Below the pieces are notes generated by a model. That model did no database searches and was not told the origin of the DNA. It saw only the letters and a list, made by a program, of their open reading frames with translations. Positions 1 to 874 of a stretch of DNA of 53,674 bases are shown here, piece by piece. Both the position numbers and the translations under genes were made by a program. Origin of the DNA: an uncultured Candidatus Saccharibacteria bacterium (GTDB lineage Bacteria > Patescibacteriota > Minisyncoccia > UBA6257 > GWB1-50-10); NCBI GenBank assembly GCA_964372445.1, contig CAYJQO010000001.1:1-53674 (forward strand), in the 5' to 3' direction. Each line of letters opens with the position of its first letter. Position 1 is the first letter of the stretch.

Positions 1-89
1 CCTGCCGACCCCGCCGTGGCGGGGGAGGAAAACTCGTATCATCCTATCTGGCTCCCCGGGTAGGATTCGAACCTACAACCCACTCCTTA

Positions 90-695
90 CACGTAATCCA
101 GCGTTTCTGCTGGCGTGGACTATATCATCATCCGCTAGATGCGGAGCGAGGCGCTTCCCCCTTTGAATAATCGGGGTACTCCCTTTCGGGATAGTCTCTA
201 CACCTGCCTACGCCAAGGCTACGGCAGGCAGGCCTTCTCTACTCGAGAATAAGCTTGCTTGCAATCCGAAGCTTTAGCGAAGGATTGGCTCGGGATTGCC
301 CTTTGCGGGTTTCCCCGAATTCACCTCGTGTTTCATCCGAAATTGCTTTCGGAAGCTGCGTAATGCCGGCCTCGATCTCACGATGGCAGTTGGCACAGAC
401 AAGAACGCATTTATCCAGCTCGGCTTTCACCTTTTCCCAGGAGCGCGTGTATCCGTGCTGGCCGATGCTGAACTCCTTGTCGTCGCGATTGCGATGATGG
501 AGATCGAGCGCGCCCTGGTACTTGCGATAGCTGCAGACCTGGCACTTTCCGCCTTTGTAGGCGATTGCCAAGGTCTTGATCTTGCGCCTTCGTTTCGCTA
601 CTGCCCTTATGAGCTCTTCTCGCCGGTCGGCATAGGTCCTCTGCTCCACCATTCTGTCAGTATATCAGGGTGCAAGGCAGAGAAGAGGCGTGTCC
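90..695 (-). mobile_element. Group I intron (subgroup IA-like architecture) carrying an HNH endonuclease ORF
   Basis: The 5' exon ends in U (696) and the intron ends in G (90). Pairings read by eye, in plus-strand coordinates: P3 322-328 with P3' 147-153 (CGAGGUG/CGCCUCG); P4 314-319 with P4' 289-294 (UUCGGG/CCCGAG); P5 hairpin 299-309; P6 282-287 with 262-267; long hairpin 203-236; P7 191-196 with P7' 118-123 (GACUAU/AUAGUC). The R-like element is UAGAGACUAU and the S-like element is GAUGAUAUAGUCC. Two extra hairpins lie between P7 and P3': 180-191 (GAAA loop) and 157-176. P8 is 131-145 and P9 is 98-113. A further hairpin UCCGAAA-GCAA-UUUCGGA lies at 336-353. I could not assign P1/IGS with confidence. 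Confidence 0.8.
239..652 (-). CDS. HNH homing-endonuclease-like protein (intron-encoded)
   Basis: 137-aa ORF with an ATG at 652. It has the Cys-pair plus HNH signature: CQVC...DLHHRNRDD...NCHREIE. It lies entirely inside the group I intron. Confidence 0.85.
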   Translation of the reverse strand: MVEQRTYADRREELIRAVAKRRRKIKTLAIAYKGGKCQVCSYRKYQGALDLHHRNRDDKEFSIGQHGYTRSWEKVKAELDKCVLVCANCHREIEAGITQLPKAISDETRGEFGETRKGQSRANPSLKLRIASKLILE

Positions 696-847
696 ACAGG
701 GAGTCGCTCTACCATTGAGCTACCGGGGAATCTAGAGATGGTAATGAACGTTCTATCTCTGAAACGTTTCGCCTGCCGTTCCCTTTCCAGGGCTGCGTAG
801 CAGAAAACTACCGGGGAACGGGAGCGCGTGTGTAGTATAGAATTGAA

Positions 848-874
848 ACGGCTCGCTGTAAAGCGGCGAGCCGT
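848..874 (-). terminator. Hairpin immediately after the stop of ORF 874..1284
   Basis: 9-bp stem ACGGCTCGC/GCGAGCCGT (848-856 / 866-874), followed on the minus strand by TTTCAATTC. The T-tract is weak. Confidence 0.4.

Follow-up and report, generated by a model that had tools for sequence, protein, structure and literature searches.

A patescibacterial tRNA-Asn group I intron with an HNH endonuclease gene in its P1 loop and a reading frame that continues through the ribozyme core

Introduction

How can one stretch of DNA serve as both a ribozyme and a protein-coding sequence? This question is raised by a group I intron at the start of the window, by which we mean the whole 53,674-nt stretch of DNA that was analyzed (contig CAYJQO010000001.1 of assembly GCA_964372445.1, from an uncultured Candidatus Saccharibacteria bacterium). 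An HNH endonuclease ORF within this intron appears to run on into the catalytic core, and the shared nucleotides could be selected both as RNA and as codons, or the end of the protein could simply be read-through.

Such overlaps have been described in other introns. The tRNA-fMet intron of Synechocystis PCC 6803 holds the gene for I-Ssp6803I in P1, with a 61-nt overlap with P1/P2 (Bonocora & Shub 2001, in PMC3073962). The core creep model predicts a variable stop, a dispensable extension and an extension length that depends on GC content (Edgell, Chalamcharla & Belfort 2011, PMC3073962). The class of tRNA intron found here, Asn.4Ug, has been catalogued by position only (seed row Pam37.Asn.4Ug) in a study which remarks that introns longer than ~400 bp may hold protein genes, and in which the HNH gene, its site in L1 and the overlap are undescribed (Williams 2020, bioRxiv 10.1101/2020.01.27.920355). 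Group I introns in the tRNAs of CPR bacteria have received a passing mention (Lui et al. 2021, PMC8172020). A literature search found no description of the HNH/tRNA-Asn family.

Results

A group I intron splits the sole tRNA-Asn candidate of the genome

A tRNA-Asn(GUU) gene was found on the minus strand of the window, at positions 729-49, interrupted after anticodon-loop nucleotide 4. Its parts are as follows.

696 to 729, minus strand: tRNA-Asn(GUU) 5' exon, ending in CUGU, with loop nucleotide 4 as U-1; joined to 89-49, it is reported by ARAGORN as tRNA-Asn(gtt)
90 to 695, minus strand: group I intron of 606 nt, with omega-G at position 90 (Rfam RF00028, 50.1 bits; G before UAA in 48/48 aligned homologs)
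49 to 89, minus strand: tRNA-Asn 3' exon, starting with UAA and ending with an encoded CCA

On the unjoined genome, ARAGORN reported no tRNA-Asn, and standard tRNA finders overlook an intron-split gene of this kind. The host assembly belongs to the Patescibacteria, measures 682 kb and is 96% complete. ARAGORN found no second tRNA-Asn across this genome, which leaves the split gene as the sole candidate. Since no other tRNA-Asn gene is present, the interrupted gene must be spliced to decode Asn codons. This is indirect evidence for the predicted self-splicing of the intron with guanosine and Mg2+. The intron lies between anticodon-loop nucleotides 4 and 5, follows U-1 and ends in omega-G, as defined for class Asn.4Ug. 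It shares with the Asn.4Ug introns of Williams (2020) the host tRNA, the insertion after loop nucleotide 4, U-1, omega-G and a GCAGC directly 5' of P2.

Two other readings of this region were tried and rejected. The gene could be read as tRNA-Thr(UGU) with the alternative junction CU/GU..UG/UAA (slashes mark the splice sites), but this is ruled out by the U1-A72 pair and G73 of the tRNA, by the arrangement CUGU/...G/UAA common to all homologs, and by the covariation in P1, which fits the Asn junction. An 11-nt duplicate of the 5' end of the tRNA had suggested a decayed intron copy upstream; local alignment of 733-875 with the pre-tRNA and with ORF-less introns was no better than with shuffled sequences. 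A promoter-like site for the pre-tRNA, TTTACA-17-TATACT, is located upstream at 862-834.

The intron belongs to a patchily distributed family

To place the intron among its relatives, species-representative genomes were scanned. This yielded 73 loci, about 50 of which have the layout seen in the window: a tRNA-Asn 5' exon ending in CUGU, a start codon 15-59 nt further on, an HNH ORF of 99-167 aa, 31-264 nt from the stop to the 3' splice site, and a G/UAA junction. Their hosts include many lineages of Patescibacteria as well as Omnitrophota, Acidobacteriota (Pyrinomonadaceae) and Acetothermia. An HNH homolog (E <= 1e-10) was present in 51 of 401 sampled Patescibacteria genomes, or about 1 in 8. 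Of 25 genomes from the same class, 10 have an intronless tRNA-Asn allele, and in one case the anticodon arm is identical to the window exons. With intronless alleles alongside intron-bearing genomes, the distribution is as patchy as a mobile element would lead one to expect.

Covariation supports the proposed core

The Rfam group I model (RF00028) matches 392-97 with 50.1 bits, only just above its gathering score of 50, and further evidence was drawn from the homologs. We aligned 48 whole pre-tRNAs, and for 41 of them the part running from the guide sequence up to the 3' splice site was folded de novo with RNAalifold. P2, P3, P4, P5, P6, P6a, P7.2, P8, P9.0 and P9 were recovered without input from the structural model of the first-pass annotation. 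The helices are listed below in the order in which they are transcribed.

695 to 699, minus strand: 5' strand of P1 (exon CUGU and intron G+1), pairing with CGCAG at 360-356
356 to 360, minus strand: internal guide sequence (IGS) CGCAG, the 3' strand of P1, within codons T98-Q99; no change in GCAG among 48 sequences
337 to 352, minus strand: P2 hairpin (352-347 / 342-337), with the GNRA loop GCAA at 346-343; codons 101-105; compensatory changes in 6/6 pairs
322 to 328, minus strand: 5' strand of P3, codons 109-110, pairing with 153-147 (Rfam model and RNAalifold)
291 to 317, minus strand: P4-P5 domain, with P4 at 317-313 / 295-291 and P5 at 309-307 / 301-299 (Rfam model and RNAalifold)
202 to 289, minus strand: P6 (289-287 / 204-202) and an enlarged P6a of ~80 nt with the ORF stop in its apical part (RNAalifold)
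118 to 196, minus strand: P7 (196-192 / 122-118), P7.1 and P7.2 hairpins (191-158), 3' strand of P3 (153-147) and P8 (146-129) (Rfam model and RNAalifold)
90 to 117, minus strand: P9.0 (117-115 / 92-90) and the P9 hairpin (112-98) with a GAAA loop; covariation in both helices

The Rfam alignment agrees with RNAalifold for P3 to P9, while its assignment of P1 and P2 to 392-360 is a forced fit. Both methods place P3 to P6 where the first-pass annotation had placed them and not elsewhere. The covariation analysis for which it had called bore out these helices, with compensatory double changes in 39 of the 46 RNAalifold pairs. The fold of the P6a extension was not better than that of shuffled sequences (z -1.6).

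P1 was defined by the 48 aligned sequences. U696 lies opposite G359, which puts U-1 in a G.U wobble with the guide sequence, and the CUGU/GCAG combination is invariant. GCAG is unchanged at every codon position of the overlapping ORF, third positions included. The pair formed by intron position +1 and the base 5' of GCAG covaries over a distance of ~340 nt, being G-C in 32/48 and A-U in 14/48. C-G pairs at this position also occur, in loci with a free-standing HNH gene. At the other end of the intron, a G precedes UAA in all 48 homologs, in agreement with omega-G at G90.

Classical bacterial tRNA introns belong to subgroup IC3, which has a compact core without P5abc, GNRA loops at L2 and L9, and no P7.1 or P7.2. 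The window intron likewise has no P5abc, and its L2 (GCAA) and L9 (GAAA) are of the expected kind, yet it carries two hairpins (191-158) between P7 and the 3' strand of P3. These hairpins are missing from six homologs with the same HNH.

The HNH gene occupies the P1 loop

The intron contains one long ORF, most of which fills L1.

239 to 652, minus strand: HNH endonuclease ORF, 137 aa, with an ATG start and a TAG stop at 241-239 (ORF list, homologs, PHROG match)
361 to 694, minus strand: L1, the loop of P1, holding a promoter-like element and the HNH body; 6-25 nt long in ORF-less tRNA-Asn introns

G695 is the first nucleotide of the intron, and the ATG at 652 thus follows the 5' splice site after 43 nt (695-653), just as first proposed. 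The protein has the residues C37xxC40, H52H53, N88 and C86xxC89H90, with none of its zinc-binding or catalytic positions lost. In 40 homologs, the Cys and His residues of the motif were invariant, and N88 was nearly so (>=90%). The strongest profile match was to phrog_2255, a phage HNH family (E 5.9e-29, residues 4-108), followed by further PHROG HNH families with E-values of 4.1e-23 and 2.3e-20. The Pfam HNH profile PF01844 scored 11.9 bits (E 0.25), which is under its cut-off of 21.4. NCBIfam profiles gave no match to the ORF protein, and a sequence search of the PDB with it returned nothing significant.

An AF2 model built on the homolog alignment had a pLDDT of 74-91 over residues 1-100, falling below 50 over residues 103-137. 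In a Foldseek search of the PDB, the top 50 matches to this model were all HNH proteins, among them Cap5, McrA, the HNH domain of Cas9 and Gme, but the matches were weak (best E 0.03, probability 0.97), with none at E <= 0.001. The first-pass annotation had ended the HNH domain near position 361, at NCHREIE. This boundary needs correction, since NCHREIE is encoded by 391-371 and the fold extends to about residue 100. About 1,455 protein homologs are on record (E <= 0.001). The best 120 of these are 102-155 aa long, share 63-83% identity and are named 'hypothetical', 'HNH' or 'McrA'. Circumstantial evidence, namely its sporadic distribution and its tie to tRNA-Asn both inside the intron and beside the gene, leads us to infer that the nuclease would cut or nick intronless tRNA-Asn DNA and thereby drive homing.

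The location of the gene within the ribozyme was settled with introns that lack it. The 401 Patescibacteria genomes were searched for CUGU-R-(3-33 nt)-Y-GCAGC right after the tRNA-Asn 5' half. ORF-less introns at the same site were found in 16 of these genomes; they are 199-389 nt long and their P1 loops measure 6-25 nt. Their R/Y pair is GC in 8, AU in 6, GU in 2 and AC in 0. The short P1 loops of these introns mean that the HNH gene sits in L1 and that the ORF reads through the guide sequence before it reaches P2. The earlier proposal that an endonuclease gene invaded a peripheral loop of an existing ribozyme is thus supported in its outline, both by these short loops and by free-standing HNH genes beside tRNA-Asn (see below); the loop concerned is L1 and not an extension of P2.

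The overlap is conserved as RNA and not as protein

As read from the alignment, the ORF continues through the IGS, P2, P3, P4, P5 and the 5' side of P6, and ends in the enlarged P6a. It had been claimed that the last ~40 codons correspond to P2.x, P3, P4, P5 and P6 (353-239). The read-through of the core was upheld, but the overlap starts earlier than stated, with codons 98-99 forming the IGS. Similarly, the ORF does reach the 5' side of P6, as claimed, and its stop lies in P6a rather than in the core P6 helix.

The overlap from the IGS to the stop is 121 nt in the window, the second longest among homologs, for which the range is 13-214 nt and the median is 39 nt. The stop is found at many places in the ribozyme. 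In P2, it lies on the 5' strand in four homologs, in L2 in one and on the 3' strand in four. Further on, it lies in J2/3 in five, at the UGA of the conserved GGUGAA in P3/J3-4 in seven and in L5 in 15. The last positions are represented by one sequence each: L6a (the window), the UAG of J6/7 and the 3' strand of P7.

Diversity by codon position differs sharply between the two parts of the ORF. In the HNH body it was 0.28/0.18/0.58 for first, second and third positions, a pattern which, judged from these sequences, is that of purifying selection on the protein. In codons 102-116, it was 0.37/0.38/0.33. The reading frame of the overlap also varies. A recognizable HNH motif was present in 117 of the closest protein homologs. 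Of these, 68 stop before P4', and the stretch J5/4-P4'-P6 is read in all three frames by the others that reach it: NPEPS-type in 26, SRAxP-type in 10 (the frame of the window ORF) and IPSQA-type in 4, although the compared sequences are related, which inflates such counts relative to the independent events behind them. In the ORF's own frame, the first stop came after a median of 36 nt, versus 27 nt in the other two frames (p 0.12). [quoted passage not shown] The free-standing homologs end 3-10 residues past CHREIEAG and have no TQLP.

One might propose instead that the C-terminal ~40 residues are functional, for example as a DNA- or RNA-binding or maturase-like extension, and that the 121 nt are under true dual constraint. 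The motifs EKRGEFGET and GNPEPS recur among homologs, and the overlapping C-terminus of I-TevI makes one contact with the DNA backbone (PMC3073962). However, these motifs are literal translations of P3/J3-4/P4 and J5/4-P4'-P6, and the same RNA is read in three frames. There is no excess of third-position changes in the tail, and in half of the homologs the ORF ends before P4. Disorder is predicted for the tail, and the free-standing homologs do without it. A functional tail is therefore exceedingly improbable. On the alignment, the tail 'motifs' (GNPEPS, EKRGEFGET) are conserved ribozyme read as codons, and knowing that residues ~98-137 are translated ribozyme guards against over-reading them as protein features. 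The protein annotations under the labels 'hypothetical', 'HNH' or 'McrA' carry this spurious C-terminus.

We favor the interpretation of the tail as an unselected by-product of read-through, which is a known kind of arrangement. Dual constraint and read-through had both been offered by the first-pass annotation. The loss of the codon pattern, the varying stops and the use of three frames speak for read-through and against dual constraint, and the predicted disorder of the tail and an overlap length equal to that of the other two frames add to the case. As contrary to its model, the annotation had named a C-terminal 40 aa conserved as protein with the helices broken. The opposite was seen, with the helices kept and no third-position excess.

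A -10-like box precedes the start codon in most Patescibacteria-type introns

The first-pass annotation had predicted that translation and splicing are mutually exclusive, which is plausible. A possible way around this conflict is offered by an element in L1.

659 to 667, minus strand: extended -10-like element TGATATACT, a candidate promoter within L1 for a leaderless mRNA, separated from the ATG by 6 nt

In 35/37 introns of the Patescibacteria type, the start codon is preceded at a distance of 5-10 nt (mode 6) by a -10-like hexamer, compared with an average of 3.5 and at most 10 in shuffled sequences. The hexamer matches TATAAT exactly in most of these introns, with a TGn extension in 18, and SD-like motifs are absent from all 37. 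Copies from other phyla show the reverse, with an SD-like motif in 10/12 and a -10 box in 0/12. In the host genome, -10 signals at the start codon occur at 6% of long ORFs versus 0.3% in the control, which makes leaderless genes plausible in this host. The conserved -10 box suggests that the mRNA of the nuclease is leaderless. A separate transcript of this kind, starting at the internal -10 box, suggests how the conflict between translation and splicing may be avoided.

Alternatively, the full pre-tRNA or the excised intron may serve as the mRNA of the nuclease, with translation and splicing in competition and the TATAAT-like element not acting as a promoter. There is precedent in T4 td, where ribosomes on the I-TevI ORF impair splicing and a sequestered RBS restrains expression (PMC3073962). 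The Omnitrophota, Acidobacteriota and Acetothermia copies, with their SD-like motifs and no -10 box, are also consistent with a single molecule. Furthermore, no -35 was recognizable for the internal -10 box, and a promoter search of the window gave just the upstream tRNA promoter at 862-834. Conservation of the box could reflect shared ancestry or a role in the RNA. Against a single molecule stand the fixed distance of the hexamer from the AUG despite diverged flanks, its TGn extensions and the lack of SD-like motifs in the Patescibacteria introns. The element is also missing from the L1 loops of ORF-less introns. Overall, we regard translation from the pre-tRNA or excised intron as a possibility to be taken seriously, though not as the probable one.

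Discussion

These results are best explained by a mobile-type Asn.4Ug intron with an HNH gene in L1, a neutral read-through tail ('core creep') and a candidate leaderless mRNA. As a whole, this explanation is very probable. The anatomy of the intron, the constraint on the overlap at the RNA level and the absence of protein-level constraint on the tail are its demonstrated parts; the explanation as a whole runs as follows. The HNH gene consists of about 100 codons and lacks its own stop, since the C-terminal helix of its product extends to within two codons of the guide sequence. With no stop of its own, translation would continue through the IGS and P2-P6 to the first in-frame stop that the ribozyme offers, which in the window is the one in the enlarged P6a, 121 nt beyond the IGS. 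Nucleotides 360-239 are selected as RNA, for pairing and tertiary motifs, and residues 98-137 would be a disordered and dispensable tail. In Patescibacteria, the -10 box in L1 would drive a leaderless mRNA for the nuclease, with its 5' end at the AUG. Such a transcript lacks the 5' exon and thus could not splice, so ribosomes crossing the core would not compete with the splicing of the tRNA. The full pre-tRNA has an internal AUG with no SD and would be free to fold and splice.

It could be argued that the ORF is a decaying remnant in a fixed and immobile intron, that the nuclease is no longer made and that the read-through means nothing beyond annotation. Decay is common among homing-endonuclease genes when no unoccupied allele is left (PMC3984707), and two homologs (L011 and L012) have premature stops. 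The copy in the window, in contrast, has all of its zinc-binding and catalytic residues. The HNH body is under strong purifying selection (diversity of 0.58 at third versus 0.18 at second positions), the -10 box and start codon are conserved, and intronless targets exist in 10/25 genomes of the same class. Decay is thus a very unlikely explanation.

Returning to a mobile intron with a read-through tail, the family can be compared with the predictions of core creep. The stop is variable, ranging from P2 to P7 with 13-214 nt of overlap. That the extension is dispensable is indirectly supported by the three frames, the predicted disorder, the missing codon pattern and the tail-less free-standing forms. 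An extension length dependent on GC content was not seen (rho 0.11, p 0.47, n=47). The large family is an unusually clean natural test of core creep, in which the stop position proved free, three frames are in use and overlap length is as expected by chance. The basic picture of mobile group I introns is unchanged; the parts worth following are the internal -10 box and the upstream versus embedded arrangements.

The closest known system is the Synechocystis I-Ssp6803I intron, which is also a group I intron in a bacterial tRNA anticodon loop with an endonuclease gene in P1 and an ORF that overlaps the core. The endonuclease there is of the PD-(D/E)XK type and not HNH, and the host tRNA and insertion position differ. 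The overlap of 61 nt with P1/P2 is exceeded here, where it extends to P6 in the window (121 nt) and to P7 in a homolog (214 nt). In addition, the many homologs available here allow the overlap to be shown to be unselected. With T4 td and I-TevI, the family shares a variable, probably dispensable extension and expression signals of the nuclease's own within the intron (here a putative promoter), and in both cases ribosomes on core sequences are expected to hinder splicing. I-TevI, however, is a GIY-YIG enzyme encoded in the P6 loop with a 20-nt overlap, and its host gene is protein-coding. The host here is a tRNA, hence there is no translation of the exons, and the overlap includes the guide sequence itself.

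The same nuclease family is also found outside of introns. Most of the seemingly free-standing homologs directly precede a tRNA-Asn gene (at -12 to +63 nt), and at ten such loci (L027, L037, L045, L046, L057, L060, L066, L068, L072 and L089) this gene holds an ORF-less intron of 205-250 nt. HNH genes both beside tRNA-Asn and in L1 mean that one nuclease family is tied to tRNA-Asn in two arrangements. Free-standing and embedded states are linked by the collaborative-homing and endonuclease-invasion models (PMC3984707). The same two states are known from collaborative (trans) homing (Zeng, Bonocora & Shub 2009; Bonocora & Shub 2009, PMC3984707), and are represented here by 10 free-standing and ~48 embedded loci. 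The known cases concern phage protein-coding genes, in contrast to the cellular tRNA-Asn genes seen here, where one nuclease family accounts for both states.

We suggest, with considerable doubt, that the system may keep both ends of the proposed pathway by which mobile group I introns arise, with the embedded form solving the conflict between translation and splicing in a new way through a leaderless mRNA from L1. If so, a free-standing nuclease beside an ORF-less intron would be one end and the same nuclease in the P1 loop the other, and the family would be a candidate natural series for the entry of nuclease genes into introns. In a tree of the HNH proteins (95 columns, with most forks poorly supported), upstream-type genes appeared at several places among the embedded ones. 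Parsimony gave five changes of arrangement, of which the well-supported branches force only one, and the tree gives no direction. At one further locus (L062), the tRNA-Asn gene that adjoins the upstream HNH gene is intronless.

HNH genes beside tRNA-Asn and in divergent introns

Homologs of the HNH gene were also found outside the intron. At ten loci, L027, L037, L045, L046, L057, L060, L066, L068, L072 and L089, an HNH homolog is positioned -12 to +63 nt upstream of a tRNA-Asn gene that carries an ORF-less intron. The introns of tRNA-Asn genes in this arrangement are 205-250 nt long, and in three of the upstream-HNH loci the HNH stop codon falls within the first bases of the adjoining tRNA. 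At L062, the tRNA-Asn adjoining the HNH gene has no intron. At another locus, a 290-nt insert (L047:1501-1790) separates the upstream HNH gene from tRNA-Asn. The first part of this insert partially duplicates the tRNA 5' end, and by eye the insert seems to code for a small GIY-YIG-like peptide.

In columns 640-780 of A1, the alignment of whole pre-tRNAs, a different ribozyme backbone is seen in six introns (L024, L026, L030, L033, L036 and L040) that carry closely related HNH genes. These introns are without the P7.1/P7.2 hairpins, and their P3 and P6 sequences and J3/4 differ. Therefore, at one and the same position in the tRNA, similar nuclease genes occupy divergent introns.

The HNH homolog at L017:1201-1717 has the ITQLP tail. 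No tRNA-Asn exon was found within 420 nt upstream of this gene, and 3' of it the guide sequence is mutated to GCAAC and the core is truncated. L017 looks like an ectopic, decayed copy.

The window intron has an enlarged P6a (window 205-286, minus strand) of about 80 nt, compared to about 25 nt in most homologs. Part of this insert is common to L004. The predicted fold of the P6a extension did not surpass that of shuffles (z -1.6).

Other tRNA genes of the host genome

A second split tRNA gene, tRNA-Phe(GAA), lies on the minus strand of the same contig, outside the window, at locus L001 (G000:C1:56237-58298). Its intron is as follows:

About C1:57747-57970, minus strand: ORF-less group I intron, 224 nt, in the anticodon loop of tRNA-Phe(GAA)

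This intron scored 60.9 bits with RF00028, the Rfam group I intron model, and the exons, once joined, were called as tRNA-Phe by ARAGORN. No further tRNA-Phe gene was found in the host genome. Across the whole genome, ARAGORN called 39 tRNAs, with Asn, Phe and Asp absent. tRNA-Asn and tRNA-Phe were not called because group I introns interrupt both, and these two introns are the only RF00028 matches in the genome. The tRNA-Asp gene could be interrupted, unassembled, or overlooked by RF00028.

Promoter-like and translation start signals

One promoter-like match was located upstream of the split tRNA-Asn:

Window 834-862, minus strand: sigma-70-like promoter match, TTTACA-17 nt-TATACT (10/12), roughly 100 nt before the 5' end of tRNA-Asn

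This is likely the promoter of pre-tRNA-Asn. Among 373 long ORFs of the host genome, an SD-like motif precedes the first ATG in 15% (control, 10%), and 6% (control, 0.3%) carry a -10-like hexamer 5-10 nt ahead of this ATG, counts that are crude since the start codons are uncurated. Such sequence counts hint that non-SD and leaderless initiation are frequent in the host organism.
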